Both the position numbers and the translations under genes were made by a program. Positions 24,024-47,239 of a stretch of 64,000 nt of DNA are shown here, one piece after another. The notes under the pieces were generated by a model. The model was not told where the DNA came from, did no database searches, and was given only the letters and a program-made list of their open reading frames with translations. The first letter of the stretch is position 1. Every line of letters starts with the position of its first letter. Source of the stretch: Clostridiales bacterium (GTDB taxonomy: Bacteria > Bacillota > Clostridia > Oscillospirales > CAG-272); contig JAAZAV010000014.1 of assembly GCA_012514145.1 (NCBI GenBank), forward strand, positions 119,265 to 183,264, in the 5' to 3' direction.

Positions 24024-24041
24024 GGAGGCGTGTTACAGGTT

Positions 24042-26212: not shown

Positions 26213-27396
26213 AAGCGATTACCGGCGGCAGAATAGTTCTGCTCGATAAAAACACCGAAGGCAGCATTGCCGACGGCTGCACGCTGCTCTATGACAAGGG
26301 AAAAATTATAGGCATAGTGCGGGATGAGGTCATTCCGGACTGCGCCGAACGTATTGACGCGAAGGGGGGGTATGTCCTTCCCGGCTTTGTTGATATTCAT
26401 GTTCACGGCGGCGGCGGCAGCGACTTTCTCGACGGTACTGTTGAAGATATCCGCACCGTCACCCGTACACACGCACTGCACGGCACAACCTCCATTCTGC
26501 CCACCACTCTCACCTGTCCGAACGAGGTATTATTCAGAAGTCTTGATCTTATCATCGGTGAGATGGAGCGCGGCAGCGGAGACGGTGCTGAAATTCTCGG
26601 CGTTCATCTGGAGGGCCCTTACTTCTCCGGTGCGTCAAAGGGCGCCCAGGCTGTTGCAGAGCAGCGGATTCCCACTCTTGAGGAACTTGAGGAGATCAAC
26701 GCCCACGCCAAAGGACACATTGTCCGCTGGGATGCCGCTCCCGAACTACCGAATATGGATCTCTTCGCCGCCTGGCTGCGCGAACACGGGATTCTCGGTT
26801 CAATCGGCCATTCGGCAGCCGACGCCGAGTGTTCGCTCGAGGCCTTCGAGAAGGGCTTCACCCACCTGACACACATGTACTGCGCCACCACAACCGAACA
26901 CAAGAAGGATCAGAAAGTGCATGCCGGTCAGATCGAGGCGGTCTATCTTGAGGATGGCTTCACCACAGAGCTCATCGGCGACGGCTGTCACATTCCGCGC
27001 GAAACGATGCAGCTTGTCTTCAAACTCAAGGGGGCAAAGAAAACCGCGCTGATTACCGATGCCATGCGTGCCGCCGGTACCGACTGCGAGCGTTCGATAC
27101 TTGGCGACCGTGTCAGCGGCACTCCGGTTATAATCGAGGACGGTGTTGCAAAACTTGTAGACCGAACCTTCTTCGCGGGCAGTATAGCGACTCTCGACGC
27201 AGCACTCAGAACAGCTATAGGTTTCGGTATACCGCTTATCGATGCTGTGTGCTCGGTAACACTGACACCTGCGGAGATTATTGGATTCGATAACAGAAAA
27301 GGCTCGCTTGAATCAGGCAAGGACGCTGACATTGTAATCACCGACCCTTCGCTTAGTGTATGCGATGTGATTATCGGAGGACGGTCAATCATGTAA
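26209..27396 (+). CDS. nagA: N-acetylglucosamine-6-phosphate deacetylase
   Basis: GFVDIHVHGGGGSDF metal-binding motif, 395 aa. ATGA start/stop overlap with nagB. Confidence 0.9.
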   Translation: MKAITGGRIVLLDKNTEGSIADGCTLLYDKGKIIGIVRDEVIPDCAERIDAKGGYVLPGFVDIHVHGGGGSDFLDGTVEDIRTVTRTHALHGTTSILPTTLTCPNEVLFRSLDLIIGEMERGSGDGAEILGVHLEGPYFSGASKGAQAVAEQRIPTLEELEEINAHAKGHIVRWDAAPELPNMDLFAAWLREHGILGSIGHSAADAECSLEAFEKGFTHLTHMYCATTTEHKKDQKVHAGQIEAVYLEDGFTTELIGDGCHIPRETMQLVFKLKGAKKTALITDAMRAAGTDCERSILGDRVSGTPVIIEDGVAKLVDRTFFAGSIATLDAALRTAIGFGIPLIDAVCSVTLTPAEIIGFDNRKGSLESGKDADIVITDPSLSVCDVIIGGRSIM

Positions 27397-28979: not shown

Positions 28980-31589
28980 ATGGAAAGAAAAATCACCGAC
29001 CTGCTGAACGGCAGGGGCGAAAACTACATACTTCCTTTCTTCTGGCAGCACGGCGAGGACGATGAGACCCTTATCCGCGAGATTGATGCCATATACAACA
29101 GTTCAATCAGGGCGGTCTGCGTCGAGTCCCGCACCCATGAACAGTTCTGCCGTGACGAATGGTGGCACACAATGGATGTCATACTCGACGCCTGCGCAAA
29201 ACGCGGGATGAAAGTATGGCTTCTTGACGACAAGCATTTCCCTTCGGGTTACGCAAACGGTATTATACCCGAGAAGTACCCGGATCAGACAATGTGGGGC
29301 ATGACCGAGCGCCATATGGATGTATACGGTCCGCAGAAGGACGGAGCGGTAGAGTATTTTACACGCACATCCCCGAATGACGAACTGCTGGCTGTGGTGG
29401 CATGCAAGCGGTCGGGTGTGGGTGAAGAGCTGACCGGCGAGGCGATTGACCTTACCGACTGTCTCGAGGATGATATGGTATACTTCGACGTACCTGAGGG
29501 CTGCTGGCGTGTATATTTCATATTCAAGACACAGTCGGGTATCGGCGCACACTTCCTGCGCTACGCGGACAAGCTCACCGAATTCGGCGGCGATGCCTAC
29601 ATCGAGGCGGTGTATCAGCCTCACTTTGAGCGTTACGGCAGTTACTTCGGCACAACCTTCGCCGGCTTTTTCTCGGATGAGCCTTGTTTCTCAAACGGGC
29701 TGGCGGTCGGGAAGCGCCCCGATCTCGGCGTCAAATACTCACATTTCCCCTATGCCCCCGAGGTCATCGAAAAGCTGAGTGAGCGCTTCGGCGAGACATA
29801 TCGTTCAATGCTGCCCTTTATCTGGGGCGACGCGGATGCGCCGGTGATGCGCACGATACGCCTGGCATATATGGACATTATCACCGACATGTACAAGCGC
29901 TACTTCTCGGGCAAGCTGGGAGACTGGTGCCGCGCCCATGGCTGCGAATACATCGGGCACATAGTTGAAGATGATGAGCAGCACACCGGAACCGGACACA
30001 GCGCCGGACACTTCTTCCGTTCACTTGACGGTCAAGATATGGCAGGTATTGACGTTGTGCTCTGTCAGACGGTTCCGGGCATGACCGATAACATAATCAC
30101 TGTGCCCTGTTCCTATGACATTGTAAATCCTGATTTCTATCACTTCACGCTGCCGAAGTTAGGCTCATCCCACGCGCATATTCAGCCAGAGAAGAAGGGG
30201 CGCGCCATGTGCGAGATCTTCGGCGCCTACGGATGGGCCGAAGGGCTTAAGATGATGAAGTGGCTCACCGACCTTATGCTGGTGCGGGGAATAAATCACT
30301 ATGTTCCGCACGCATTTACGCCGAAATTTCCCGACCCGGACTGTCCGCCGCATATGTTCGCCCAGGGCACTAATCCTCAGTATGTGCTCTTCCGGCGTCT
30401 CGCCGAGTATATGAACCGTGTCTGTCACATAACAAACGGCGGTCGGCATATTCAGTCGACGGCGCTGCTCTATCACGCCGAGGCGCGCTGGGCATCAAAA
30501 TGCGAGAATTATATGAAGGTGGATGTTCCTGCGCGGTACCTGACCGAGCACGGTCTGGACTACGACATTGTTTCCGCAGATTATCTGAACGGTGCAAAGG
30601 TTGAGAACGGTCAGCTTATGCTGGCAGACGAGAGCTATCCATGCCTTGTCATTCCTCAGGCCGAGTATCTGCCCGAAAAGCTGCTGCGCGATATCGCGTC
30701 GCTGGCAAATGACGGGCTCCCGGTTATCTGTATAGGTCAGGTTCCCGAAGCTGCCGAAGGCGGTACTTATTCTCTTGGTGATATCGACAACGTCAAGACA
30801 GTAAAACTCGAAACGCTGGATTCCGCAGTACGCAAGTACTCCAAGGATATCACCGTATCCGGAGAATATCCTCGTTTCCTGCGCTTCTATCACTATGTGT
30901 CGGGTGATACTCATTATTATATGTTTACCAACGAAGGCATCCGTGACACAATCGAATGCAGCGTACGGTTTCCGGTGTTCAAGTTCGGTCATTATGTGGT
31001 ATATGACGCTATGGAGAATATTGCATGGCGAGAGACCGATCTTGACGGCTCGATACGCATCAGTCTCAAGCCTTATGAATCGCTTATTTATGTTTTCGGC
31101 GATACCGAAGGTATCCCTCTCGGCGCGAAACCGGTCGAACGCTGCAATTTCAAATCTGAGATTACCGAATTGAGCGGCACCTGGGAGATATCCACCGCCG
31201 AACCGGCAGCATACCCGGTATTCACACCTTATCGCAGCAGTGATACTCTCTTTAATATAACCGGTCGGGGTATGTTACCCCGCTTCTCTGGTCACATAAA
31301 ATATGAGCTGACCTTTAATAATGCCTACTCTGCAAAGAAATCGGCTGTTATTGACCTTGGTTATGTTGGCGAGTGTGCCGAGTTGTATGTCAACGGTCAG
31401 CCTGCCGGCACGCGCATTGCACCGCCCTACCGCTTTAATGTCAGTTCGCTGCTCTGCAAAGGCGAGAACCGCCTGACAGTCGAAGTGACAAACCATTACG
31501 GCTGGAAGATGCGCGACCGTCTGTCACAGTATCTGCTGTTTGAGCCATCCGGACTGCTTGGTCCGGTGACTCTGGAAATCGAGAAATAA
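28980..31589 (+). CDS. large putative glycoside hydrolase with a C-terminal jelly-roll / galactose-binding-like domain
   Basis: 869 aa. N-terminal block ILPFFWQHGEDDETLIREIDAIY ... KVWLLDDKHFPSGYANG. C-terminal LYVNGQPAGTRIAPPYRFNVSSLLCKGENRLTVEVTN, a sugar-binding jelly-roll pattern shared with GH2/GH106-type enzymes. The exact family is not resolved. Confidence 0.7.
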   Translation: MERKITDLLNGRGENYILPFFWQHGEDDETLIREIDAIYNSSIRAVCVESRTHEQFCRDEWWHTMDVILDACAKRGMKVWLLDDKHFPSGYANGIIPEKYPDQTMWGMTERHMDVYGPQKDGAVEYFTRTSPNDELLAVVACKRSGVGEELTGEAIDLTDCLEDDMVYFDVPEGCWRVYFIFKTQSGIGAHFLRYADKLTEFGGDAYIEAVYQPHFERYGSYFGTTFAGFFSDEPCFSNGLAVGKRPDLGVKYSHFPYAPEVIEKLSERFGETYRSMLPFIWGDADAPVMRTIRLAYMDIITDMYKRYFSGKLGDWCRAHGCEYIGHIVEDDEQHTGTGHSAGHFFRSLDGQDMAGIDVVLCQTVPGMTDNIITVPCSYDIVNPDFYHFTLPKLGSSHAHIQPEKKGRAMCEIFGAYGWAEGLKMMKWLTDLMLVRGINHYVPHAFTPKFPDPDCPPHMFAQGTNPQYVLFRRLAEYMNRVCHITNGGRHIQSTALLYHAEARWASKCENYMKVDVPARYLTEHGLDYDIVSADYLNGAKVENGQLMLADESYPCLVIPQAEYLPEKLLRDIASLANDGLPVICIGQVPEAAEGGTYSLGDIDNVKTVKLETLDSAVRKYSKDITVSGEYPRFLRFYHYVSGDTHYYMFTNEGIRDTIECSVRFPVFKFGHYVVYDAMENIAWRETDLDGSIRISLKPYESLIYVFGDTEGIPLGAKPVERCNFKSEITELSGTWEISTAEPAAYPVFTPYRSSDTLFNITGRGMLPRFSGHIKYELTFNNAYSAKKSAVIDLGYVGECAELYVNGQPAGTRIAPPYRFNVSSLLCKGENRLTVEVTNHYGWKMRDRLSQYLLFEPSGLLGPVTLEIEK

Positions 31590-31616: not shown

Positions 31617-32252
31617 ATGGAACTCAAGGGAAAAGTAATCAGCTTTTTAGGCGACAGCATAACCGAGGGCTGCGGCACAAGCGGTGTCGAAAAGCATTTC
31701 GTTACGCTTATCGGAAAACGCTGCGGATTTAAGCGTTTCAACAACTACGGCATAGGCGGCACCCGTATCGCGCCGCAGCATACTCCCTCCGCAACCGCAC
31801 GCTGGGATCTCGACTTCTGCGGACGCTGCAAGAACATGGATCCCGAATCGGATATCATTGTGGTTTTCGGCGGTACCAATGACTTCGGTCACGGCGACGC
31901 CCCGATAGGAGACTTTGAGGATCGCGGTACCGATACCTTCTGCGGCTCCTGCCATTATCTCATGAGAACACTGATCGAAACATATCCGGAGGCGGTTATA
32001 GTCATCTGTACTCCACTGCACCGCGGCGGCGAAAACAACCGACAGCCTGTCACTATGGCGGAATACAACGCCATAATCAAACGCACCGCAGAATACTATT
32101 CCCTGCCCGTTCTCGACCTCTGGAGCATATCCGGCATGCAGCCTGCGGTGGAAGTCATAAAATCCAAGTATATGCCTGACGGACTGCATCCCAACGACGC
32201 CGGTCATGAGCTGCTTGCCGCAAGGATTACAGGCTTCCTGCAGGCTTTATAA
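31617..32252 (+). CDS. SGNH/GDSL hydrolase family esterase
   Basis: Block I ISFLGDSITEG and block V DGLHPNDAGHELLA. Confidence 0.8.
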   Translation: MELKGKVISFLGDSITEGCGTSGVEKHFVTLIGKRCGFKRFNNYGIGGTRIAPQHTPSATARWDLDFCGRCKNMDPESDIIVVFGGTNDFGHGDAPIGDFEDRGTDTFCGSCHYLMRTLIETYPEAVIVICTPLHRGGENNRQPVTMAEYNAIIKRTAEYYSLPVLDLWSISGMQPAVEVIKSKYMPDGLHPNDAGHELLAARITGFLQAL

Positions 32253-32290: not shown

Positions 32291-33247
32291 ATGTCATATA
32301 CCGATATACGCGCCGCGCAGGATGATTTTTCGAGTCTGCGCTGGGGTGTTTTCCATCATTATCTCTGGAATCCACGTGTGTTTCCCGGCAGGCCAGAGGC
32401 GGCTGACTGGGCGAAGAACATAGAATCCTTTGACACCGACCGTCTGGCGCGAACTCTGCACGATATGGGCGCCGGGTACTATTTCATTACCATGGTGCAC
32501 GGCACCGAGTATATGATCGCGCCGAATGACGCTTTCAGATACATTGCCGGTTCGTGGGCTGACAGTGTATCTCCGCGCCGCGACCTTGTTGAGGATCTTT
32601 ATACATCGCTGTCACGCTACGGAATCAGGCTTTGTCTGTATTTCAACGCCTCGACACCGCTACTCACCTCTGTTGCCGCCGAGATGAACACCGCATTTGA
32701 CCGTGGCACCGAGCTTCCGAAGCCGGGAGTGAATGTGACACATCTTGCGGTACCCGAATCAACACGGTTGTGGGCGGAGGTGCTGCGGGAATACGCGGTG
32801 CGTTATGGCGACAAAGTGACAGCCTGGTGGCTGGACAGCTGTTACACCTGGTACGGCCACACGCCGGAAACAATGAAGTTGCTGTACGACGCCATAAAAG
32901 CGGGAAATCCGAATGCGCTCACCGCCTTCAACGGCGGAGTTATGAAGGATATTGTAAAATGGTATGCTGACGAGGAATTTACCTGCGGTGAATTCAATGA
33001 GTTCGACTATGTTCCCGACGGACGCTTCACCGATGGAGCTCAGAATCACATTCTCGCACCGCTGGGCTACACTCAGCATTACCGCGGCGGCTGGGGTGAG
33101 AAAAACTCCAAGATAACCGGCGAAGAGCTGCGCAGTTACCTGAAACGGCTTGAAGCGGCAGGCTGTCCGCTTACGATTGATGTCCACGTGCGCCCCGACG
33201 GTACCTTCGACCCTGTTCAGGAGGAGATTCTGCGTGCTCTCGCGTAA
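32291..33247 (+). CDS. hypothetical TIM-barrel-like hydrolase, possibly alpha-L-fucosidase (GH29)-related
   Basis: LRWGVFHHYLW and VTAWWLDSCY weakly resemble GH29 N-terminal blocks. The assignment is tentative. Confidence 0.5.
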   Translation: MSYTDIRAAQDDFSSLRWGVFHHYLWNPRVFPGRPEAADWAKNIESFDTDRLARTLHDMGAGYYFITMVHGTEYMIAPNDAFRYIAGSWADSVSPRRDLVEDLYTSLSRYGIRLCLYFNASTPLLTSVAAEMNTAFDRGTELPKPGVNVTHLAVPESTRLWAEVLREYAVRYGDKVTAWWLDSCYTWYGHTPETMKLLYDAIKAGNPNALTAFNGGVMKDIVKWYADEEFTCGEFNEFDYVPDGRFTDGAQNHILAPLGYTQHYRGGWGEKNSKITGEELRSYLKRLEAAGCPLTIDVHVRPDGTFDPVQEEILRALA

Positions 33248-33359: not shown

Positions 33360-34823
33360 ATGAACCGTTTGACATCTCCGTGTCTGTCGCTGTGCGATAT
33401 ACTCGGTGAGGAATACATTTCTCAGATACTGCGCTCTGCCGAGCTGACCGGCATCGACACCGATCCGAAACTCGCATACAAGAAGGTTGATTTTCTGCCT
33501 GATTCGAGGATTGAACAGCAGAAGAAGCTTCTCGCTGCGGTGGGCAGCAGCGTTAAGGAAGCCTGGAATGATACCGAGGACGGTTCTCCCACGGCATCGT
33601 TCAAAAAGGCTGATAACCGCAAAGCCGCATCGGTCGGCGGCGTGGGCTGCATGCGTGTCGGCGAGGACGGCAGACTATATCTTGTCGGCAAGAGCGAGCA
33701 TTACCATGCATCCCTCGGACACGATTTCGGCGGTTACAAGCTCATAAGTTACGCCAAATCCCTTGGTATTTCCAATGCAGCTCACAATAACAGCCGCGGC
33801 TATATCACCCGTCTGCTTGAAAGGCGGCTTGTCGAGACAATCGGCGTTCCCAGGCTTGACCGTGTCATCAACCTGGAAACGGGCAGTATTGCCTGTGAGG
33901 CGGGCATCAAAATGATGCTGGCGCGCTTCTATGCTCTTGACAATACTTTCGCAGAGCCGGTTTACAGCGGAAAAACGCCCGTATTCCTGGTGCTGAAAGG
34001 CAACTACCACGGCACAAATGTGGTTTCACAGATCCTCCGCGGCATGTGGGGCGGCATGTACAAAAAGCTGGAGGAAGCCGGAATCGTAAAGGTCGTCGAG
34101 CTTATCCCAAACGATATTGAAGAATTCAAAGCTAAGCTCACCGAACACAACAGCGGTTCATTCAAGACTGCAGGCTTCCTTCATGAGCTGATAATGATGA
34201 ACAACGGCGCCATAAAGCTTGATAAGGAATATATCCGTACTGTGTACAAGTTATGCGCCGAGAGCAATACTCCGACACTTGTGGACGAGATCCAGACCGG
34301 CATGTGGTATACCGGTATGTTCCTGTTCCGCCTGTACGGTCTTAAGCCTGACTTTGTCGTCATCGGCAAGGGCTTCCCGGGCGGTGAATACCCGGCAAGC
34401 AGGATTGTCACCAATGCCAAGATGGATACCCTGAATCAGTTCGGCGCCCTGGTCACCAACGGTCAGGAGGAACTGGCTTCCCTTGCGTACCTTATCACAA
34501 TGGAGTACCACAAAGCAAACGCCGAATACATCGGCAAACTCGGCGATCACTTCAATGCGTCTCTTAAGGCGATCGCTGACAGATATCCCGCACTTATAAC
34601 CTGCGTCGAGGGAATGGGGCACTGTTCTTCTCTTCAGTTCGTCAATGTTGAAGCGGCTGCCGATTGCGCCTCACACCTTAACAAGCGCTGCATTGACTGC
34701 TCGGTTCAGCTATACAAGGCCGAGTGTCCGCCGGCGCTGCTGCTCAAGCCGCCGCTTGTTGCCGACACCGATGTACTTGATTTCATAACCGACGCCATCG
34801 ACGAGGTGCTTAAGAATCTATGA
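33360..34823 (+). CDS. class-III (PLP-dependent) aminotransferase family protein
   Basis: DEIQTGMWYTGMFLF ... DFVVIGKGFPGG (class-III DExQTG block and Schiff-base Lys context). 487 aa with an N-terminal extension. GAAGGAG ribosome-binding site. Confidence 0.8.
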   Translation: MNRLTSPCLSLCDILGEEYISQILRSAELTGIDTDPKLAYKKVDFLPDSRIEQQKKLLAAVGSSVKEAWNDTEDGSPTASFKKADNRKAASVGGVGCMRVGEDGRLYLVGKSEHYHASLGHDFGGYKLISYAKSLGISNAAHNNSRGYITRLLERRLVETIGVPRLDRVINLETGSIACEAGIKMMLARFYALDNTFAEPVYSGKTPVFLVLKGNYHGTNVVSQILRGMWGGMYKKLEEAGIVKVVELIPNDIEEFKAKLTEHNSGSFKTAGFLHELIMMNNGAIKLDKEYIRTVYKLCAESNTPTLVDEIQTGMWYTGMFLFRLYGLKPDFVVIGKGFPGGEYPASRIVTNAKMDTLNQFGALVTNGQEELASLAYLITMEYHKANAEYIGKLGDHFNASLKAIADRYPALITCVEGMGHCSSLQFVNVEAAADCASHLNKRCIDCSVQLYKAECPPALLLKPPLVADTDVLDFITDAIDEVLKNL

Positions 34824-36256
34824 TTGTACTCGGAATAGATGTGGGAACCACAGGCACCAAGACTCTTGCCCTTAACGACAACGGTGAGATACTCGGCCGC
34901 GGCTACCATGAATACGGGCTTATCACACGTCCCGGCGGCATAGTTGAGCAAAAGGCTTCCGACTGGTACGATGCGGTCGTGATATCTGTAAGACAGGCGA
35001 CTGAGGGTCTCGAAAGGGACGACATAGCAGCGATCTCGCTCTCTACCCAGGGTGCGTCCATGACCGCGGTTGACTCGGATTTCAACGAACTCTGCAATGT
35101 CATCACCTGGATGGACAGACGCGCAGTCGAGGAAGCCGATTATATAAACGGCGTAATCGGCAGCGAGAATGTCTACCGCACTACCGGCTACTCCATCGGT
35201 CCCAGCATAGACGCTCCGAAGATACTCTGGCTGCGAAAGAACAACCCGGAGCTGACCGAAAAGACGCACAGTTATGTTTCTACAATCGAGTATATCAATT
35301 ATAAGCTCACCGGCGTCAATGTTATCGACCCCACCAACGCCGCCATACGCGGTATGTTCGACATCAACAAAGTCGGCTGAAGTGATAAAATCCTCGCCGC
35401 CATGGAACTTGACCTAAAATATCTGCCCGAGACGGCGGTCAGCAGTACCTGCATCGGCAGTCTGACCGAAACGGCTGCTTCCGACCTGGGAATAAGTCGT
35501 GATGTGAAGGTATATCTCGGCGCGCATGACCAGTATTGCGCGGCTCTCGGCAGCGGCGCGGTTAATGCGGGCGACATGCTGCTGTCAACCGGCACAACCT
35601 GGGTGGTTCTCGGAATATCCGACCGCATCATCTACAGTTCAAGCCATATCTCCCCAGGCATACACCCGGTAAAGGGGCTTTACGGCGAGCTGGCATCCCT
35701 TAAAAACGGCGGTTCGGCTCTCAAGTGGTATAAGCAGTTGGTGTCTGCCGAAAGCTATGCCGACCTGGATGCCAACGCCGCAGAGCGGCTTCACAGCTCC
35801 GCCGGACTGCTTTTTGCACCCTATTTTAACGGCGCGGGCTTCCCCACCTCGGATAACACCCGTTTCGGCAGTCTTCAGGGGCTGCAGCTGCATCACGATA
35901 AATACGACATCGCCCGGGCGCTTATGGAGGGTGTGGCATTTGAAATCAGGCGCACGCTCGATGAATTCGCTGCCAACGGGCTTGAAGTAAAAAATCTAAA
36001 ATTCATGGGCGGTGCGGCTAACAGCCGTCTCTGGACAGAGATCACCGGCTATATCACCGGTTGCCGAATGACACGCATGACCGAAAGCGAGGCATGTGCC
36101 GTGGGTGCGGCGCTTATCGCAGGCGTCGGCTGCGGTATGCTGCCGTCCTACGATATAGGGCTTGCATCCGAGGATATCGAGCTTAGCGACAAATCGCTGT
36201 ATGATTTCTATGATGATAAATTCAATGATTATGTCAATTTCGTAACAAGGATGTGA
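34820..36256 (+). pseudogene. FGGY-family carbohydrate kinase interrupted by one in-frame TGA (35378-35380)
   Basis: ORFs 34820-35380 (IVLGIDVGTTGTKTLAL, FGGY_N) and 35402-36256 (MGGAANSRLWTEITGYITG, FGGY_C) are in the same frame. Read-through gives ...FDINKVG*SDKILAAMELDLKYLPE, with the stop at the position of the Trp that I recall as conserved in FGGY kinases. Confidence 0.8.
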
Positions 36257-36263
36257 CCGTAAC

Positions 36264-37280
36264 ATGAGAGTAGAATATTTTGAACGCACGCCGCTGGATG
36301 CAGAGTTCTATGACAAATATCTCAAAGACCGCATCCCTTCAAAACTCATCGACATGCACCTACACTTCACCAAACCCGAGTTCTGCACCAACCTTCAGGT
36401 AGACCCAAACAGCTGGGCATCACAATGCAGCTCGAAAATGGAGTTTGAGGATTACAAGTATTACGCGAATATTTTCTATCCCGACACCGAGTTCTTTGTC
36501 AATGCCCTCCCATCGGTCACCAAGGGCATTGACATAGTGGGCAACAACGGCTATATCGCCGAACTGAAGGCTGCCGGCAAAGCCAAATACGCACATATGC
36601 TGGTCAATCCCGAGTGGACAGGCGATTACACCGAGAAAATGTTCCTTGAGGGCAATTTCGACGGCTACAAGCCCTATCCCGACTATGTATCGGGCAAGCG
36701 CGGCGCAGAGATCGGCATGTTTGATTTCGTCAACCCAGATCAGTATGAGATTCTTAACAAGTATAATAAGTCCATGGTGCTCCACCTTCCGAGAGCCGGA
36801 CGCTATCCCGACGACAACAACATCAAGGAACTGATTACAATCCGCGAGAAGTACCCGAATATTAAAGTCATCATCGCACACTGCGGCCGCTCTTACGCCA
36901 TGTATTTTATTACCGAAGCGGCAAGGAAGCTGGGCTCCATGTTCAACGACTTCTACTACGATCTCGCCGCAGTGCTCAATCCCGAGGTGTTAGATTTCAT
37001 GATGGCGAATGTTGATAACAAACGCATCATGTACGGCACCGACCTGCCGGTATTCCTGTGGCATGGCAAGCGCCGCTGGACCTACACCGAATATTTCAAC
37101 CTCGTCCGCGAGGATTTCAAATTCAACAAGCACGAGGAAGGCCCCGAGAAGGAAGCGGGCTACACCTTCTTCCTGTATGAGCAGCTTAAGAACATACTTG
37201 ATGTCACCGACAAATACGGCGGAAAGAAAACCGCCGAGGACATATTCTATAACAACGCAGTGAGAATTGTGGAGGGCTAA
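36264..37280 (+). CDS. amidohydrolase-2 family metal-dependent hydrolase (TIM barrel)
   Basis: LIDMHLHF near the N-terminus, IIAHCGRSY and MYGTDLPV blocks typical of Amidohydro_2. Confidence 0.7.
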   Translation: MRVEYFERTPLDAEFYDKYLKDRIPSKLIDMHLHFTKPEFCTNLQVDPNSWASQCSSKMEFEDYKYYANIFYPDTEFFVNALPSVTKGIDIVGNNGYIAELKAAGKAKYAHMLVNPEWTGDYTEKMFLEGNFDGYKPYPDYVSGKRGAEIGMFDFVNPDQYEILNKYNKSMVLHLPRAGRYPDDNNIKELITIREKYPNIKVIIAHCGRSYAMYFITEAARKLGSMFNDFYYDLAAVLNPEVLDFMMANVDNKRIMYGTDLPVFLWHGKRRWTYTEYFNLVREDFKFNKHEEGPEKEAGYTFFLYEQLKNILDVTDKYGGKKTAEDIFYNNAVRIVEG

Positions 37281-38654
37281 ATGGAAAAACTGAAAGTAGG
37301 GCTCCTGCCTCTTTATATCAAGCTTTATGACGACTTTTCGGCGCAGATGCGCCCGCGTATCGATCTCTTTTATGAGCAGATTACTGAGGCTATCCGTGCG
37401 AAGGGTGCAGAAGTTGTAACCTCACCTGTCTGCCGCCTGACCAAAGAGTTCAAAGCGACTGTTGCATATTTCGAGGAAGCCGGTGTTGACGCCATAGTCA
37501 CCCTGCATCTCGCCTACTCGCCTTCGCTGAAATCAGCCGAGGTTCTGGCTAACACCAGGCTGCCGATTGTTGTTCTTGACACTACCCCAACCTATATTTA
37601 CGATGCCTACACCGACCCCGCCGAGCTTTCATATAACCATGGCATCCACGGTGTACAGGATATGTGCAACCTGCTTCGCCGCAACGGCAAGTTCTTCCGG
37701 ATTCACGCCGGCCACTGGGAGGAGTCGGACGTCATAGACCGTGTCCTGGCATCTGTAAAGGGCGCAAAGTTGGCGAAGAAACTCCCCTCCATGCGTGTCG
37801 GAATGGTTGGTGAGCCTTTCAAGGGTATGGGCGACTTCCAGCTTGGCGGACGCAAGCTCAACAAGCTGCTTGGCTTCACCACCATCGACTTTGATATGGA
37901 TTCACAGTACGAAATATCCACGGCAGAGGCAGAAAGCGAATACGCGTATGACGCCGTTCGTTATGATGTTTCCGCGCTGACAAAAGATGAATATCTCGAG
38001 CGTGTAAAGGTTGATCTTGCAATCCGCAAGTGGGTCGAGGAACAGAAACTCGACGCCTTCACCGTAAACTTCCTCTCCACCTCAAAGGATAACGCCATGT
38101 ACTACATGCCCTTCACCGCCGCAAGCAAAGCCATGCGCGACGGTATCGGCTATGCAGGCGAAGGCGACCTTATGACCGCGGCTCTGGTCGGCACCTTCCT
38201 CAGCCAGTATAATGAGACATCCTTCACCGAAATGTTCTGCCCCGATTGGAAGAACAACTCGATATTCCTCAACCATATGGGCGAGCAGAACCCCAACTGC
38301 GCCGTCGGGTCCCGCTATGTAACCAGTTCATTTAAGTATACAGACGCCGGCGAGCCTATGAAGTTGGTCGGAACATTCAAGCCCGGCAAGGCGATATTCG
38401 CCTGTCTTGCTCCGCAGGCCGGCAACAAGTTCACTCTTATCGCTTCTCAGGTTGAGATGCTGGATACTCCTGCCGACAACCGTCACACCGGCGGCGTAAA
38501 CGGCTGGCTCAAGCCTGCCAAGCCGGTTTCGGACTTTCTTGAGGATTACAGCAGAAACGGCGGCATTCACCACGCGATGCTTGTCTACGGCGGAGATATC
38601 GAGGTTGTTAAAGCATTTGCCGAATATTCGGGTTTCGGTTTCGTTGAAATCTGA
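37281..38654 (+). CDS. L-fucose/L-arabinose isomerase family protein
   Basis: N-terminal KVGLLPLYIKLYDD pattern and about 457 aa length resemble the AraA/FucI-like family. The start abuts the upstream TAA. Family call from memory, not a search. Confidence 0.6.
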   Translation: MEKLKVGLLPLYIKLYDDFSAQMRPRIDLFYEQITEAIRAKGAEVVTSPVCRLTKEFKATVAYFEEAGVDAIVTLHLAYSPSLKSAEVLANTRLPIVVLDTTPTYIYDAYTDPAELSYNHGIHGVQDMCNLLRRNGKFFRIHAGHWEESDVIDRVLASVKGAKLAKKLPSMRVGMVGEPFKGMGDFQLGGRKLNKLLGFTTIDFDMDSQYEISTAEAESEYAYDAVRYDVSALTKDEYLERVKVDLAIRKWVEEQKLDAFTVNFLSTSKDNAMYYMPFTAASKAMRDGIGYAGEGDLMTAALVGTFLSQYNETSFTEMFCPDWKNNSIFLNHMGEQNPNCAVGSRYVTSSFKYTDAGEPMKLVGTFKPGKAIFACLAPQAGNKFTLIASQVEMLDTPADNRHTGGVNGWLKPAKPVSDFLEDYSRNGGIHHAMLVYGGDIEVVKAFAEYSGFGFVEI

Positions 38655-38693: not shown

Positions 38694-39884
38694 ATGAATA
38701 ACATTGTAAAGATAGGTGTATTCGGCACCAAGCGCGGCAAATCCTTCATAAACGCTTTCAAAGATGTCGACGGTGTGAAGGTCACCGCACTATGCGATAA
38801 AAACACCGCAGCGCTCGATTCGGCAGCCGCTCTCTGCGATCCCGATGTGCAGAAGTATACCGACTTTGACGAATTCATCGAAAAGTCGGGTATTGACGCG
38901 GTTGTTCTCACCAACTATTTCCATCAGCATACCCCCTTCGCCATAAAGGCAATGGAGCGCGGAATCCATGTACTCAGTGAGACCACTCCTGCCTCGACTA
39001 TGGCGGAATGCGTTGCGCTCTGCCGCGCCGTTGAGCGTACCGGCTGCAAGTATATGCTTGCCGAGAACTATCCCTTCATGTGCTCATGTATTGAGCTTAA
39101 GCGCGTGTACGAAAGCGGCAAGCTCGGTCCGGTTATGTATGCCGAGGGTGAATATGTGCACCCCATGTCAGCCGCGGATTCCAATTCCATTTCCCCCGGT
39201 GAATTCCACTGGAGAAGGTGGCTGCCCCGCACCTATTATCTCACCCACTCACTGGCGCCTCTGATGCATATGACCGGCGCTATGCCGCTTAAGGTCAACG
39301 CCCGCACCTCCTGGCGTCCCGAATATTCCCTCGAGCGCGGCCGTGCGGTAGGCGACGGGCACAGCACCATCATGCTTGCCATGGATAATGACTCGGTGTT
39401 CCGTGTAGCCGGCTCATGCTGCTTCGGTCCTCATGGAAACTGGTACCGTCTCGGCTGTCTGCGCGGCGGCATTGAAACGGTGCGCGGCGATCAGAGCTCT
39501 GTCAGGCTTGTTTACAACTCCTGGGAGACTCCAGAAGGTGAGGAAAGCCGCACCTACACAGCCGAATGGAGAGAGCTGGGCGAGCTGGCAAGCAAAGCGG
39601 GACACGGCGGCGGCGACTTCTGGGTATGTTACCACTTCGCCAGGTATCTGACAGATGATGTCAAGCCATTCTTCGACGTGTACCGCTCAACTGCGATGTC
39701 GGCTGTCGCTATTCTCGCGTGGAGAAGCGTGCTTGAGGACGGTGCGACCAAGACTGTTCCCGACTTCTCCGACGAGGAGCAGCGGAAGCTCTGGGAAAAC
39801 GATACCGCCACCCCCTTCCCCACCGATGAGAACGGAATGGCAGCGGTATCTATGCCCTGCTCCAGCCGCGAGTTTAAAGTGTAA
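38694..39884 (+). CDS. Gfo/Idh/MocA family oxidoreductase
   Basis: N-terminal Rossmann KIGVFGTKRGKSF ... VTALCD ... DAVVLTNYFHQHTPFAIKAMERGIHVLSE(T)P pattern. Confidence 0.8.
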   Translation: MNNIVKIGVFGTKRGKSFINAFKDVDGVKVTALCDKNTAALDSAAALCDPDVQKYTDFDEFIEKSGIDAVVLTNYFHQHTPFAIKAMERGIHVLSETTPASTMAECVALCRAVERTGCKYMLAENYPFMCSCIELKRVYESGKLGPVMYAEGEYVHPMSAADSNSISPGEFHWRRWLPRTYYLTHSLAPLMHMTGAMPLKVNARTSWRPEYSLERGRAVGDGHSTIMLAMDNDSVFRVAGSCCFGPHGNWYRLGCLRGGIETVRGDQSSVRLVYNSWETPEGEESRTYTAEWRELGELASKAGHGGGDFWVCYHFARYLTDDVKPFFDVYRSTAMSAVAILAWRSVLEDGATKTVPDFSDEEQRKLWENDTATPFPTDENGMAAVSMPCSSREFKV

Positions 39885-40818: not shown

Positions 40819-41829
40819 TTATTTCTTGATGAAATTCGCCGTGGATGCCGTCATGTGCTTTGCATATTCCAGGTCAATTTCATGTTCCAGCGGCTCAATG
40901 CCGGCGATAAACCTGCGCAGATCGCCGATGAGCGCAAGAGTGACATGCTCTCTGATGTCGGTAGTCGGACCGCCGCGGTGAGGAACGAGATATATACCCT
41001 CAATTCCCCGCAGCGACGAATCGGCAGGCAGAGGCTCGCGCTCATACACATCAAGTATGGCGCGTATTCTTCCCTCGCGGCAGACTTTTGCCAGGTCATC
41101 CTCCACTATAATCGCACCGCGTGCGGTGTTGACAAAGAGTGCGTCCGGCTTCATTTTCTCGAAATAATGTGCATCGATCATATGATAGGTATCTTCTCGC
41201 AGGGATTCATGCAGCGATACAATGTCGCATGTTTCGAAAATCTCGTCCATATCGCACTTCTGAGCCCGATATTCCGTCTGCATTTCGGGCAGGAAATAAT
41301 CGGAGCATATTTTCACCGTGCATTCGAACGCCTGCAGCATCTTCGCAAGGTTCTTGGCAATCATGCCGAAGCCGATGATACCAATCGTCTTGAAGCGGAT
41401 ACCGTCGGAGCGGCGGTAGGGCGCCCAGCCGTTGTTATGGGTTTCGTTTATGACATCCACCAGTCTGCGCTGCGCCGCGATGATATAGCCGATTGTCCCC
41501 TCTGCCACCGAATTGGCATAAAGCCGGTTGCCGCAAACAAGACGTATGCCACGAGCGGTCATTTCCTCTGTCATGATACCTGCTACGCTGCCGCCGGTGT
41601 AGCAGACCAGTTTTAGTTTGTCGGCATTTCTCAGAAAATCATCGGTCATCTGAGGCATCCCCCAGTTGCCGAATAACACATCGACACCGGCCAGGGAGTC
41701 CCGCAGTTCGTCACGGCTCATAATTGCATATTTGGCATCGCCGCAGGTCTCAATCTCGGTTTTAGCACGCTCGGTGAAGAATGTGTTCTGAACTTCGGCG
41801 CTGGCGCTGCTGCTTACAAGTATATTCAT
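40819..41829 (-). CDS. D-isomer-specific 2-hydroxyacid dehydrogenase family protein
   Basis: NAD-binding IGIIGFGMIAKNLAKML and the catalytic-region block NTARGAIIVEDDL ... VPHRGGPT. Start set to the ATG at 41829 (AAAGGAA 11 nt upstream) rather than the track's 41883. Confidence 0.85.
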   Translation of the reverse strand: MNILVSSSASAEVQNTFFTERAKTEIETCGDAKYAIMSRDELRDSLAGVDVLFGNWGMPQMTDDFLRNADKLKLVCYTGGSVAGIMTEEMTARGIRLVCGNRLYANSVAEGTIGYIIAAQRRLVDVINETHNNGWAPYRRSDGIRFKTIGIIGFGMIAKNLAKMLQAFECTVKICSDYFLPEMQTEYRAQKCDMDEIFETCDIVSLHESLREDTYHMIDAHYFEKMKPDALFVNTARGAIIVEDDLAKVCREGRIRAILDVYEREPLPADSSLRGIEGIYLVPHRGGPTTDIREHVTLALIGDLRRFIAGIEPLEHEIDLEYAKHMTASTANFIKK

Positions 41830-41840
41830 GTATATGATAA

Positions 41841-41906
41841 TTCCTTTCGCTGCGCTCAAGTCACAAAAGGGTAATGAAACCAAATGCGGCGGCGCAGAGT
41901 TAAAAT
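41841..41906 (-). repeat. 66-nt direct repeat copy R1 (5' leader of the dehydrogenase gene)
   Basis: Hand alignment with 46675-46739 shows one 1-nt indel in an A-run plus 2 substitutions. It contains the ribosome-binding site and ends 11 nt before the ATG. Confidence 0.9.
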
Positions 41907-42045
41907 ATGTGATATGATAAGCTTGAGAAAAGGCACACTACAGAGTACGTGGAGGTTAGTGGACACAGCGCACGCTGAACCGTATGTTTATATGTACCGA
42001 TTTCTCAGGTTCGCAGAGGATTCTATGCCTGAACTTCATTATATC

Positions 42046-42081
42046 GGAGCTGTATCAATATCTTCGTTTTGATACAGCTCC
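42046..42081 (-). terminator. hairpin downstream of Ig-like paralog A
   Basis: Perfect 12-bp stem GGAGCTGTATCA / TGATACAGCTCC, but no clear U-tract on the minus strand. Confidence 0.4.
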
Positions 42082-42129
42082 GCTTTCGGTTGTTATGCGA
42101 GTTTGCCGGGTTGGTCAGGCTTTATGGTG

Positions 42130-44361
42130 TTAAGGATTGATATATTCGATTTTAACATGAAACGTCAGCTTTCCGCCGTATCTGTCGGTGATGATGCAGT
42201 CAGCTTCCGTGTATAAAGTCAAAGAATATATATACCAATCATCACGTCCCTGCAGCCAGCCATCTCCCCCGGTATGTACTTTGTATGATCCGTATTCCCC
42301 GGTCGTGCTGATTCCCAGTTTCGAGCCGTTAACTTCCGTTCTTACTATATGAACCACGGAGCCGTATTTCTCGACGCGATATTCCGGCTCGATGATATAA
42401 AGGTTTTCCGGCACCAGATTTTTGCGCCCCTGCCATTCAAAAGTCAGTCCTTCGCCGAGGACATAATCTCTCATGTCTATCCAATAGAGAGTGCCGTCCT
42501 TGGTGACTTCAAGTTTCGTCTGAGTCAGGTTATCCCGCTTGTATCTCAGCGTGCCTTCAAGCTTTGCCGGCATTGTCGCGAAATTGTGACCGTTTACCTT
42601 TCCTTTGCAGCGGAACCAGCAGCCGGAGGATTCCGACCCGACAAAGACATCGATTTTCTTGGAGTTGGTGTCGGGAAGGTCGACCCAGTTGCCGCCTTCG
42701 CTTCTGCGCTGCCAGACGCACTCGAGACTGTTGACTTTAAGTCCGATAAAATCAAAATCGAAACTGACACGTTCGTTGAATTTAGCTCTGACGCTCTTTG
42801 GATTCCGGATATTGTAATCTTTCGGCGCCGTGTCGTAGGTAATGGAAACCTCGTTGGAAATGACAGGTTCCGAATGCTGCCCGCTGATTACGCAGCGGAA
42901 TTTGAAAGTACCGCTGCCGTCCTCTTTGTACCATGTAAGCGTCGGAGTGTCAAATCCGGCAAACTGTGGGTTTTTATCGGGGACATCTCGCCAGTTGTTC
43001 AGCCATAAAAACTGCCAACGATAAAAGATCAAAGAATCGCCCGTTGCCTTGACATGAATCTCGGCAGGAACATTCTCTGTCTTGACAACGTTTTGCGGCT
43101 GCTCGGTTATTTTCAATTCCAGAAGCGAGTTGACTTTTGCCGGGGAAGAGGATACGGTAAGGCCATATCTGTCGGTGATAAGACAGATATACTCAGGCAG
43201 GCTGCCCGGTAATATTACATTTAATATCGGCGGCGGGTTTACCACGAGCGACAGCGTATTCGTCTGGGCGCCGGAGTAATTGGTTCCATCCTTTATATTT
43301 CTGTATTCATAGGACATGAATACTCCCTCTTCTTTGCTGAAGCTTCCGACCAGCTCCTGCCATTGATACTTAAGGTCAAGACCTTCGGCGCCGACATAGA
43401 GTGTGGCGATTTCTCCCGCCTTCTTTGTCTGTTCCTTCGGCTGCACGGTGATATTGATGCCTGGGCTTATAGGAATTATCGAAGCATAATCGGATGTGAC
43501 GGATTTGCCGTTTTTATCGGTTATGACGCAGCGGTAGCTGCCCGATCTGATCGCATATATATCGGCCAATATCGTCAGCTTCGATGCGGCTGCGCCGGAA
43601 ATGCCGCTTGATTCGTATAGGTCAACCCAGTTCCAGGAAGACGCCGCAGCGCTTTCCGGATTTGAATCGAAGGCTCTTTCATCCCGCTGCCATTTATATT
43701 TAAGACCCTCTCCGGACGCTTTGACTTCGAAGACCGCATAATCGCCCTCTTTGACATTGCAGTCTTCCGGCTGTTTTTCGATAACCGGTACGCCGGACGA
43801 CTCCGAAACCGGTTTCTCGTCGGAACCCGGCTTTTCGTCGGAATCCAAATCCGGCGTCGGCGCTCCTTTAAGCGTCAGGCTGAGCGTTCTCGCCTTCGGA
43901 TCCCAGACGTATTCTTTAGCGTAAAATTTCGCCAGGTCGTCGACGTAGATTATCGTACTGCCGCCGACGTTGAAGCTGTCCACCTTTACGCCGTCAAGAT
44001 AGGTGACAATGTCGGTGAAATACACCGGCATCGCCTTCGAGCCGATAGGATGGGTGTTTTTCTCCGGCTTGTATCCGCCGACTACCGGCACGCTTTCCAG
44101 CCGCCTTACGGTCAGCTCTCTTTCGACTCCGTACCATACTACATAAAAGCCGTAGTTCGAAAGGTCCTCAACTATAACGGCGGTGTTTCCTTTGATGTTG
44201 TAGGAACGAATTGGCAATCCGTTGATATAGGTTATGATGTCGGTGTGAAGAACATGATCGACCACATCCCCGACTTTCGGAGCGGCGAAGATAACCTGCG
44301 GCAGACACGCGAGAATTGTCAGGGTGAGCGCTAAAGCTAAGAATTGCTTGATTGCTTTCAT
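42130..44361 (-). CDS. secreted repeat protein, paralog A: signal peptide, two N-terminal ~65-aa repeats, linker, Ig-like modules
   Basis: Signal peptide ending IFA|AP. Repeats TDIITYINGLPIRSYNIKGNTAVIVEDL and TDIVTYLDGVKVDSFNVGGSTIIYVDDL. Ig-like signatures KYKWQ...GSYRCVITDKNGKSVTS, KYQWQ...EYICLITDRYGLTVSS, FYRWQ...FKFRCVISG and CVWQ...CWFRCKG. GAAAGGAA ribosome-binding site. Confidence 0.8.
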   Translation of the reverse strand: MKAIKQFLALALTLTILACLPQVIFAAPKVGDVVDHVLHTDIITYINGLPIRSYNIKGNTAVIVEDLSNYGFYVVWYGVERELTVRRLESVPVVGGYKPEKNTHPIGSKAMPVYFTDIVTYLDGVKVDSFNVGGSTIIYVDDLAKFYAKEYVWDPKARTLSLTLKGAPTPDLDSDEKPGSDEKPVSESSGVPVIEKQPEDCNVKEGDYAVFEVKASGEGLKYKWQRDERAFDSNPESAAASSWNWVDLYESSGISGAAASKLTILADIYAIRSGSYRCVITDKNGKSVTSDYASIIPISPGINITVQPKEQTKKAGEIATLYVGAEGLDLKYQWQELVGSFSKEEGVFMSYEYRNIKDGTNYSGAQTNTLSLVVNPPPILNVILPGSLPEYICLITDRYGLTVSSSPAKVNSLLELKITEQPQNVVKTENVPAEIHVKATGDSLIFYRWQFLWLNNWRDVPDKNPQFAGFDTPTLTWYKEDGSGTFKFRCVISGQHSEPVISNEVSITYDTAPKDYNIRNPKSVRAKFNERVSFDFDFIGLKVNSLECVWQRRSEGGNWVDLPDTNSKKIDVFVGSESSGCWFRCKGKVNGHNFATMPAKLEGTLRYKRDNLTQTKLEVTKDGTLYWIDMRDYVLGEGLTFEWQGRKNLVPENLYIIEPEYRVEKYGSVVHIVRTEVNGSKLGISTTGEYGSYKVHTGGDGWLQGRDDWYIYSLTLYTEADCIITDRYGGKLTFHVKIEYINP
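43865..44303 (-). repeat. 439-bp near-identical block (copy in paralog A)
   Basis: Aligns without gaps to 46167-46605 at an offset of 2302. About 5 mismatches in a 133-nt stretch compared by eye. Confidence 0.85.
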
Positions 44362-44415
44362 TTCGGTTCCTTTCGTGGTTTGATTTCGTGTTGCGTCTTG
44401 CTTTGAGTTCGGGAT

Positions 44416-44444
44416 ATCGGCGGCTTACACTGTCAGCCGCCGAT
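44416..44444 (-). terminator. hairpin between paralog B and paralog A
   Basis: Perfect 10-bp stem ATCGGCGGCT / AGCCGCCGAT. No U-tract, so it is at best a weak or partial terminator or an RNA-stability element. Confidence 0.4.
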
Positions 44445-44461
44445 TATCCAGGCTTTATTGG

Positions 44462-46663
44462 TTATTCCCAATCATATTCGATTGTAACATGAAATGTCAG
44501 CTTCTCGCCGTATTTATCGGTAATGTTGCAATACGCTTCTTCGTATAATTTTTCAACCACATACATTTCATCGTTGCCTGACCCGCTAAAATAGTACCTA
44601 TAATGGGTTGTACTTATCCCTAATCTCGGTCCATCAACTTGTGTTCTTATTACCCCAATTTCAGAGCCATGTGGCTCGAAGCGAATTTCCGGTTCAATGA
44701 TATAAAGGTTTTCGGGTATCCAGTTGTTGCGCCCTTCCCATTCATAAGTCAGACCTTCGCCTACGATATATTTGCTGACGTCTATCCAGTGCAGCTCGCC
44801 GTTAGTTTTGATTTTCATCGTTGTCTTCGTTAATCCGCTGCGTTTCGGAACCAGCGTACCCTGAAGCTGAGCCGGCATTGTTGTGAATTTATGACCGTTT
44901 ACCGTCCCCGTGCAGCGGTACCAGCAGCCGGAGTTTTCCGGAGTGATCTGCAGTAAAATGCTTGTGTCGGTAGGGTTTTTGCTTGGAAGATCAACCCACT
45001 TTCCGTCATTCCCTTTCATCTGCCATATACATTTTAGACTGTTAACCTTGATATTATAAAATCCAAAACTGAAAAAAGCTTCATCGTAAAATTTGCCTCT
45101 GAAAGTTTTAGGTTGGTATATCTGGTAATCTTCGATCGGCAGTTTGAAGGTAATCGCAGCTTCGTTGGAAATAACCGGTTCGGAATTCGGTCCGTCGACT
45201 ATGCAGCGGACATTTGAAGTACCGCTTGTATCTCGGCTCCATGAAAGCGTCGGTGTGTCAACGCCGGCAAATTTCGGATTATTTTCGGGGATGTCCGTCC
45301 ACTTTCCCAGCCATATAAACTGCCAGCGGTAAGAAAGCGGGAAATCGCCCTCCGCTTTTATATGAAGTTCGGCGGGAGCATTCTCGGTCTGTATAACATT
45401 TTTCGGCTGCTCGGTTATCCTGATTTCCCTGTAAGAGTTGATCATAGCCGGAGAAGAGGATATTGTCATGCCGTAGCGGTCGGTGATAAGACAGATATAC
45501 TTCTGTGTCCCGCCGGGCACTACTACCCCGAACATTTTCGACGCATCGACTTTAACCGTCAGAGTCTTCGTTTTGGTACCGGAGTATTTGCCGCCGTCAT
45601 CAATATTCTGGTATTCGGAGCTCATTAATATTCCGGAGCTGCTGTCGGCGTTGTATTTTAATACCAGCTCTTGCCACTGATATTTTAAGTCACTGCCGGT
45701 TGCTTCAACATAAAGGGTGGCGTATTCTCCCGCCTTCTTTCTTTGATCCTGCGGCTGTGTGATGATTTTAATGCTGGGCTTTAAGGGAATTATCGACACA
45801 TGATTTGATGTGACGGTTTTTCCGTTGCTGTCTGTTATAATGCAGCGATAGCCGCCGGAATAAACAGCGTCAAGGTCCACCAATACGGAGAGCTTCGATG
45901 TTTTTGCGCCGGAAATCCCTCCCCCGTCCGAAAGATTGACCCAATTCCAGGAGGAAGAAGTTGAGGCGCTGTCCGGCGTCGTTGATTTGGAGTCTGATTC
46001 TTCCCGCTGCCATCGGTATTTTAAGCCGTCTCCGGATGCTTTTACTTCAAAGAACGCATATTCGCCTTCTTTAACGCTGCAGCTCTCCGGTTGCTTTTCA
46101 ATGACCGGTTCTCCGGATGAACCAGAGCCCGGTTTATCTTCCGAACCTGAACCCGATGCAGAAGCGCCTTTAAGCGTCAGGCTGAGTGTCCTCGCCTTCG
46201 GATCCCAGAAGTATTCTTTCGCGTAGAATCTCGCCAGGTCGTCGACGTAGATTATCGTGCTGCCGCCGACATTGAAGCTGTCCACCTTTACGCCGTCAAG
46301 ATAGGTGACAATGTCAGTGAAATACACCGGCATCGCCTTCGAGCCGATCGGATGAGTGTTTTTCTCCGGCGTATAGCCGCCGACTACCGGTACGCTTTCC
46401 AGCCGCATTACGGTGAGTTTTCTTTGATCTCCATACCATACGACATAAAAGCCGTACTTCGAGAGATCCTCAACTATTACGGCGGTGTTGCCTTTGATGT
46501 TGTAGGAGCGGATCGGCAATCCGTTGATATAGGTTATGATGTCGGTGTGAAGAACATGATCGACCACATCCCCGACTTTCGGAGCGGCGAAGATAGCCTG
46601 CGGCATACCTGAAAACATTAATACAGCAAGCGCGAGGGCGATGAATCTCTTAATGGATTTCAT
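44462..46663 (-). CDS. secreted repeat protein, paralog B (same architecture as A)
   Basis: Start set to the ATG at 46663 (MKSIKRFIALALAVLMFSGMPQAIFA|AP; AAAGGAA 11 nt upstream). Residues of the two N-terminal repeats are almost identical to A, while the Ig-like part is clearly diverged (YRCIITDSNGKTVTS, KYICLITDRYGMTISS, VRCIVDG, CWYRCTG). Confidence 0.8.
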   Translation of the reverse strand: MKSIKRFIALALAVLMFSGMPQAIFAAPKVGDVVDHVLHTDIITYINGLPIRSYNIKGNTAVIVEDLSKYGFYVVWYGDQRKLTVMRLESVPVVGGYTPEKNTHPIGSKAMPVYFTDIVTYLDGVKVDSFNVGGSTIIYVDDLARFYAKEYFWDPKARTLSLTLKGASASGSGSEDKPGSGSSGEPVIEKQPESCSVKEGEYAFFEVKASGDGLKYRWQREESDSKSTTPDSASTSSSWNWVNLSDGGGISGAKTSKLSVLVDLDAVYSGGYRCIITDSNGKTVTSNHVSIIPLKPSIKIITQPQDQRKKAGEYATLYVEATGSDLKYQWQELVLKYNADSSSGILMSSEYQNIDDGGKYSGTKTKTLTVKVDASKMFGVVVPGGTQKYICLITDRYGMTISSSPAMINSYREIRITEQPKNVIQTENAPAELHIKAEGDFPLSYRWQFIWLGKWTDIPENNPKFAGVDTPTLSWSRDTSGTSNVRCIVDGPNSEPVISNEAAITFKLPIEDYQIYQPKTFRGKFYDEAFFSFGFYNIKVNSLKCIWQMKGNDGKWVDLPSKNPTDTSILLQITPENSGCWYRCTGTVNGHKFTTMPAQLQGTLVPKRSGLTKTTMKIKTNGELHWIDVSKYIVGEGLTYEWEGRNNWIPENLYIIEPEIRFEPHGSEIGVIRTQVDGPRLGISTTHYRYYFSGSGNDEMYVVEKLYEEAYCNITDKYGEKLTFHVTIEYDWE
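46167..46605 (-). repeat. 439-bp near-identical block (copy in paralog B)
   Basis: See 43865-44303. Confidence 0.85.
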
Positions 46664-46674
46664 TTTTATGACCT

Positions 46675-46739
46675 TTCCTTTCGCTGCGCTCAAGTCACAA
46701 AGGGTAATGAAACCAAATGCGACAGCGCAGAGTTAAAAT
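46675..46739 (-). repeat. 65-nt direct repeat copy R2 (5' leader of paralog B)
   Basis: Matches 41841-41906. It contains the ribosome-binding site and ends 11 nt before the ATG at 46663. Confidence 0.9.
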
Positions 46740-46789
46740 TCTTACCAGTTGTTTACATTAAACCATGCTTGTTTAATGTGCGCTTTCTG

Positions 46790-46951
46790 CTATTAAAAGC
46801 AAGAACAAGTCCCCCTGGAATTGTCAAACGTTACAATGCTCTGAAAAAGCGCAGGGGTCACAAGAAAGCAGTGATTGCTATTGCTCGAATGCTGCTGACT
46901 GCCATCTTCAGCGTTCTCAAAAAACACGAACCTTACCCCCCGGAACTTTAT
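46790..46951 (+). mobile_element. IS110-family transposase C-terminal remnant (5'-truncated, non-functional)
   Basis: Only IVKRYNALKKRRGHKKAVIAIARMLLTAIFSVLKKHEPY resembles the extreme C-terminus of IS110/IS1111 transposases (..RGKKKAIVAVARKLL..). No DEDD N-terminal domain is present, and the rest of the 162-aa ORF is not protein-like. Confidence 0.6.
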
Positions 46952-47239
46952 CGCAAATCCGACACTCCTCCGGAGATTAGTAATGTGCCTTTTGATAAAT
47001 CAGTCTTTATTTTACAGCGTCAGAGGTATTTATTTCGTCTTAGTCTTAAGGCGGTTGAGTTTAATTTATATCCATCTCAATCACCTTTACGGAGGTCTGT
47101 TTTTTGCGCCTGTTTTTATTCGCTTAGCCGATCATTTATCAATCTTATCCTCCAATCAAAGTCATTATCTTTCATAATCTATAATATCACCACGCTGACG
47201 CACGGTCAAGTGGCAGATTCATTATTTCCGTTCTTATGC

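Follow-up and report, generated by a model that had tools for sequence, protein, structure and literature searches.

In bacteria, in-frame stops occur commonly as polymorphisms of short duration, and carbohydrate-metabolism genes are frequently affected (Belinky et al. 2021, PMC7918605); a reading of such stops as sites of frequent read-through also goes back to that study. UGA is the leakiest stop codon and tRNA-Trp is its near-cognate reader, and opal read-through by tRNA-Trp(CCA) is enhanced by variants with a 4-bp anticodon stem or with A9C/G24A (PMC13092985). FGGY kinases, exemplified by XylB, GlpK and GntK, combine an FGGY_N and an FGGY_C domain with an N-terminal DxGTT motif, a GAHDQ motif and a segment of the form W-[SD]-x-x-[IL]-L ... 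L-P.

The locus described here lies in a 64-kb stretch of DNA, the whole of which was analyzed and is referred to as the window. It resembles the nascent pseudogenes of the published survey in that a single in-frame stop interrupts an otherwise intact conserved gene in near-identical genomes only, that dN/dS is well under 1, and that carbohydrate metabolism is among the commonest categories there (PMC7918605). Unlike those stops, it shows no sign of cross-species conservation or reversal, and it is joined by a damaging-looking glycine-to-serine change. As in near-cognate UGA decoding by tRNA-Trp(CCA), the UGA stands at a tryptophan position and its decoding would yield the native protein; in contrast to such systems, UGA is a frequent genuine stop in the window, and no signs of elevated read-through were found. 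The gene shares both domains and both motifs of the FGGY kinases, and the mutated tryptophan falls within the W-[SD]-x-x-[IL]-L segment. It differs from xylose operons in its setting, an aminotransferase-kinase-amidohydrolase-isomerase module that is atypical for them. The feature is thus an ordinary strain-level nonsense polymorphism, of a kind already known.

An FGGY kinase frame divided by one stop

Translation of the forward strand gave one frame of 478 codons with a sole internal stop. The original prediction that two ORFs share a frame and that an in-frame TGA splits an FGGY kinase was borne out by this translation and by Pfam. The features of the gene are as follows.

34820-36256 (+): FGGY-family carbohydrate kinase, whole frame with a single interruption (translation, Pfam, NCBIfam, homologues)
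34820-35380 (+): N-terminal remnant ORF, 186 aa, ending within FGGY_N; "hypothetical protein" NLE12610.1 (GX628_02910) at NCBI
35378-35380 (+): premature opal stop TGA at codon 187, arisen from TGG (Trp) by G-to-A at 35380 (sister haplotypes, homologues)
35402-36256 (+): C-terminal remnant ORF, 284 aa, starting at internal Met195; likewise a "hypothetical protein", NLE12611.1 (GX628_02915)
35444-35446 (+): codon 209, AGT (Ser), a private change at a near-invariant Gly, 22 codons past the stop (haplotype and homologue alignments)

Read through the stop, the translation runs ...GMFDINKVG*SDKILAAMELDLKYLPE. With Trp placed at the stop, FGGY_N (PF00370) matches residues 2-244 and spans the interruption (E 1e-52; 179.7 bits, cut-off 28.8), and FGGY_C (PF02782) matches residues 255-437 of the read-through translation (E 2.8e-27; 96.2 bits, cut-off 27). 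These matches across the stop are far above chance. The DxGTT motif is present as GIDVGTTGTK at residues 5-14 and the G-x-H-D-Q motif as GAHDQY at residues 234-239, and in an alignment of 121 sequences D7, G9, T10, T11, H236, D237 and Q238 occupy invariant columns. Both halves therefore retain their family motifs, as had been proposed. The further statement that no other lesion is visible holds for stops, as the frame contains no second one, but overlooks the private Gly209-to-Ser change. In a six-frame scan of the window for stop-separated segments of at least 100 codons, no other interrupted gene was found; the remaining pairs were neighboring separate genes or antisense ORFs.

Family membership is best expressed as descent. 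An FGGY kinase is an uninterrupted two-domain polypeptide, whereas this frame breaks at codon 187 within FGGY_N, so that the gene is a family member through its ancestry but not an intact one. Its best NCBIfam match is XylB TIGR01312, at 313.2 bits against a cut-off of 380.25; another XylB equivalog, NF011601, gives 170.2 bits against 912, and the protein scores under the curated cut-off of every NCBIfam equivalog. Among solved structures, those nearest to it are E. coli XylB (2itm, E 6e-46) and the gluconate kinase 3gbt. The label "xylulokinase-type" is accordingly apt for the nearest relative but goes beyond what the equivalog cut-offs allow. The gene is best named a fresh pseudogene or a null-to-strongly-hypomorphic allele, and NLE12610.1 and NLE12611.1 are to be annotated as halves of a single FGGY kinase pseudogene.

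Ancestral codon and reality of the TGA allele

The position of the stop is one of strong conservation. A database search returned 931 homologues at E <=1e-20; in an alignment of the best 120 of these 931, column 187 is W in 119 and Y in one. At the nucleotide level, 73 of 80 species-representative genomes (Oscillospirales/Eubacteriales MAGs) have TGG at codon 187 and the other seven have a tyrosine codon (TAC/TAT); in all 80, the kinase gene is free of in-frame stops over its whole length. In solved structures, E. coli XylB (2itm) has the W of its WSD motif at this column, and gluconate kinase 3gbt and xylulokinase 5vm1 have W there as well. Closer relatives were obtained from a 90%-identity protein cluster holding three intact 478-aa alleles (P0001, P0123 and P0124), about 97% identical to the window kinase. 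The contigs of these alleles, together with a further contig, L012, constitute four sister haplotypes with 96.7-98.2% nucleotide identity to the window over 9.3 kb. All four carry TGG at codon 187; therefore, TGA is the derived state and arose through a G-to-A transition at 35380. The proposals that a conserved tryptophan underlies the stop and that TGG changed to TGA are both upheld by these comparisons.

A true TGG obscured by a sequencing or assembly error is conceivable for a single-base difference from relatives in a metagenome-assembled genome (the window belongs to the NCBI MAG 'Clostridiales bacterium', the source of NLE12610.1 and NLE12611.1). However, nine contigs from ENA, JGI and Logan encode exactly the 186-aa N-terminal product, and the eight loci that were fetched (L004-L011), produced by different pipelines, match the window at 99.94-100% identity and without exception read GGC TGA AGT. 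They come from seven datasets (ENA ERZ773285; JGI 3300026311, 3300020072, 3300019239, 3300019237 and 3300019224; Logan SRR5007708), some of which may have a common origin, with at least five separate libraries among them. Moreover, the local sequence at the stop, GGCTGAAGT, is free of homopolymers and repeats. Because independently assembled contigs carry the identical TGA, an error is excluded for practical purposes, and we regard an artefact as extremely improbable; the original prediction had listed it as an option, which is refuted by at least seven other datasets. The same approach, a search for the allele in independently assembled public contigs, allows in-frame stops of MAGs to be validated without reads.

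The species, an uncultured member of the Clostridia from biogas reactors, has the TGA fixed in a single clonal strain. Since all carriers are one clone, they are uninformative on how long the allele has lasted. The species is absent from the GTDB-representative collection, where the best kinase relative is 56% identical. An exact 64-nt pattern with N at the mutated base had no match in the genome_contigs or metagenome_contigs collections, and a metagenome scan for further haplotypes with intact P0124 gave only one human-gut locus, at 50% identity.

The haplotype comparison also drew attention to the segment around the stop. Amino-acid differences among the haplotypes are concentrated in codons 186-225, which hold 10 of the 23 variable codons. 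Codon 199 (35414-35416) encodes four amino acids (L, S, P, P, Q) over five haplotypes that are about 97% identical. Codons 190-225 of the kinase look like a locally hypervariable surface segment, to judge from these substitutions.

Loss of function weighed against read-through, adaptive loss and recoding

We consider it highly likely that the TGA at codon 187 is a real and recent allele that abolishes or strongly reduces kinase function. This reading accords with the very recent nonsense pseudogene of the original prediction, which is the best supported of its options given the restriction of TGA to one clone, the low private divergence, the Gly209-to-Ser change and a nonsense allele in a sister strain. 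The change at codon 209 (GGT to AGT) is private to the window; the four sister haplotypes have GGT or GGC, and the column is Gly in 118 of 119 homologues. It could possibly represent early decay or a second inactivating hit. The sister lesion is found in L012, the nearest haplotype (98.15%, SRR13001970), where the TGG of the invariant Trp97 is replaced by TAG (L012:5998-6000, equivalent to window 35108-35110). Its kinase is split into 96 and 381 aa, and the TAG allele was seen in a single contig only. This TAG is a nonsense allele independent of the window TGA. An earlier lesion common to both nonsense-bearing haplotypes was considered and rejected; they share only Tyr201, at a variable column. 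The species seems to tolerate or favor loss of the kinase because a sister strain has a separate amber codon at Trp97, and the Gly209-to-Ser change together with the sister TAG tips the balance toward loss of function over maintained read-through. What the two nonsense alleles have in common is loss of the kinase, not restoration of tryptophan.

The lesion is young. Relative to a TGG haplotype, dN/dS is 0.13 before the stop and 0.12 after it, within the 0.05-0.24 of the neighboring genes, and the window kinase has five private codon changes, including the stop, at codons common to the other four haplotypes. Neighbor-like dN/dS and only five private codons therefore indicate a recent origin. 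As most of the divergence is older than the mutation, the same ratios do not discriminate between inactivation and maintained function.

The consequences can be outlined from the domain map. RF2 would terminate translation at UGA187 and release a 186-residue fragment, which, lacking 58 residues of domain I and the entire domain II, would be expected to be inactive; the remaining 291 kinase codons would be left untranslated. Expression of the tightly packed downstream genes may drop through lost coupling or polarity. A small fraction of ribosomes may insert Trp by way of near-cognate tRNA-Trp and produce a full-length protein carrying Ser209. Kinase activity would be abolished, or limited to the yield of tRNA-Trp read-through at UGA, and in this strain the pathway of the cluster is predicted to be without, or nearly without, its kinase step. 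From these sequence comparisons we infer that the gene has lost its function and that the kinase is dispensable. The rest of the cluster is intact in both nonsense-bearing strains, which is unexpected if the whole pathway had become useless.

Two alternatives attribute a benefit to the allele. One holds that the stop is leaky and under selection, with low but useful read-through by tRNA-Trp keeping the allele as a down-tuned gene. The TGA lies exactly at a Trp codon, where read-through restores the native residue; the base at +4 is A, which is not the strongest termination context; and the dN/dS of 0.12 after the stop would also result from continued selection. In bacteria, read-through of UGA can be increased by certain tRNA-Trp(CCA) variants (PMC13092985). 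Nevertheless, the stop recurs in none of the diverged orthologues: its carriers are at least 99.94% identical, with no sign of persistence through divergence, and the four sister haplotypes and 80 species genomes are without it. Furthermore, the Gly209-to-Ser change downstream suggests that this part has lost its protection, a search downstream for a stimulatory RNA structure was negative, and TGA is a genuine stop in 14 of 43 other genes, which gives no hint of genomic adaptation to a leaky UGA. The sister lesion, in turn, is a UAG, and UAG is not expected to be efficiently read by tRNA-Trp. Read-through of UGA187 as a functional mechanism is somewhat disfavored on these grounds, and a leaky stop maintained by selection appears improbable. 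The argument that both stops fall at Trp codons and hence signal read-through was rejected as well, as one of them is UAG and the coincidence has a chance probability of about 0.07-0.13. This estimate reflects the composition of the gene, in which 14 of the 25 transitions that create a stop start from TGG; with a transition/transversion ratio of 1.9 among the haplotypes (kappa about 3.9), the TGG share of nonsense mutations is about 26%.

The other alternative, adaptive loss, is a sub-variant of the loss-of-function reading that differs in the selective cause: inactivation would be advantageous in the habitat of the species, for example by avoiding a toxic sugar-phosphate intermediate or wasteful phosphorylation, and knock-outs would arise and sweep repeatedly. 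Consistent with this, nonsense alleles occur in two of five haplotypes versus none of 80 species-representative homologues (nominally significant, Fisher p = 0.003), the kinase alone is affected while the other cluster genes are intact in both strains, and it was the TGA clone that turned up in at least seven datasets. However, the comparison uses a small sample of five haplotypes ascertained partly through the stop itself, and with the window left out the p value is 0.048. That both hits fell on TGG is also unremarkable, with a probability of about 0.07 that is higher still given that G-to-A, along with C-to-T, is the commonest change among the haplotypes. Repeated adaptive loss is unlikely, a little less so than the leaky stop. 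Taken at face value, the two independent nonsense alleles hint that the kinase is dispensable or costly in anaerobic digesters, which is of modest ecological interest. A broader version, in which the kinase is a recurrent target of selection and either a leaky UGA187 knock-down that leaves a little native enzyme or a UAG97 knock-out is favored, for example against sugar-phosphate toxicity, is more doubtful than either; if true, such stops at Trp codons would serve as a switch of expression that is thrown in one step and quickly reversed.

Programmed recoding, whether as selenocysteine, as a code-4-like UGA=Trp assignment or as a functional two-subunit split kinase, is the least credible account, and we give it almost no weight. 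An in-frame TGA within an otherwise intact gene would fit such schemes, and an ATG at 35402, 21 nt past the stop, would fit a split kinase. Yet this ATG is an ordinary internal Met in every haplotype, no Shine-Dalgarno-like sequence was seen before it, and the break falls within FGGY_N. The best 120 homologues are all single chains of 477-500 aa, and none is naturally split outside this species. Regarding selenocysteine, the column is Trp or Tyr and never Cys or Sec, a 90-nt segment around and past the stop folds with no more stability than shuffled sequences (z = -0.04), and no Rfam family reaches its gathering threshold in the 64 kb. Under a reassigned code, UGA would not serve as a terminator and would turn up repeatedly at Trp positions of many genes, but this in-frame TGA is the only one in the 64 kb. 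The 45 non-overlapping ORFs of the window end in TAA (25), TGA (16) or TAG (4), and with the two kinase pieces left out, TGA ends 14 of the 43 other genes. Pfam profiles also run to the protein C-termini, reaching 403/403 at residue 484 of 487 in the aminotransferase and 141/144 at residue 450 of 457 in the isomerase. Profiles ending at C-termini and 14 genes ending in TGA together demonstrate normal use of TGA as a stop, in agreement with the earlier view that recoding is excluded, here within the window, where no second gene is interrupted. ARAGORN detected no tRNA gene in the 64 kb, and hence no tRNA-Trp. Selenocysteine, code reassignment and a structured read-through signal were ruled out by the fold, tRNA, Rfam and column results.

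The surrounding gene cluster

The interrupted kinase has intact neighbors on both sides, identified by Pfam.

33360-34823 (+): class-III aminotransferase, intact, upstream, with an ATGA overlap with the kinase start (Pfam, ORFs)
36264-37280 (+): Amidohydro_2 protein, intact, downstream (Pfam)
37281-38654 (+): L-arabinose-isomerase-like protein, intact (Pfam)
38694-39884 (+): GFO/IDH/MocA oxidoreductase, intact (Pfam)

The ATGA overlap said to couple the kinase to the aminotransferase was confirmed, with the kinase starting at 34820. In 80 species loci (L018-L097), the neighbors of kinase homologues include an aminotransferase in 54, an amidohydrolase in 39 and an isomerase in 38. The aminotransferase-kinase-Amidohydro_2-isomerase module (33360-38654) recurs in many gut and rumen Oscillospirales/Eubacteriales MAGs. 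None of the module proteins matches at an NCBIfam equivalog cut-off; consequently, the substrate of the module appears uncharacterised. By these recurrent neighbors, the kinase thus belongs to a conserved, uncharacterised catabolic module.

On a larger scale, the kinase sits in a large glycan-utilisation region, with the following assigned members.

22563-24023: GH43
24030-25109: BNR/sialidase-like
26209-27396: Amidohydro_1
28980-31589: GH106-like
31617-32252: GDSL esterase
32291-33247: GH29-like
49630-51750 (-): heparinase II/III-like

Two further observations concern genes downstream of the module. A segment of about 5.3 kb (41836-47144) is missing from the sister contigs L012 and L013, whose alignments skip from 41835 to 47145. 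Two tandem minus-strand paralogues of 743 aa are encoded within it, both with Ig-like domains and, judged by eye, an apparent N-terminal signal sequence; these are 62% identical overall, and their first ~170 residues are nearly identical. The segment is a putative strain-variable surface-protein island. A 2-hydroxyacid dehydrogenase gene (40819-41883, -) is listed with 354 aa from a TTG in the window but called with 336 aa in the sister contigs; the downstream start is probably the true one. No other gene of the window haplotype has as many private changes (12 synonymous and seven non-synonymous).
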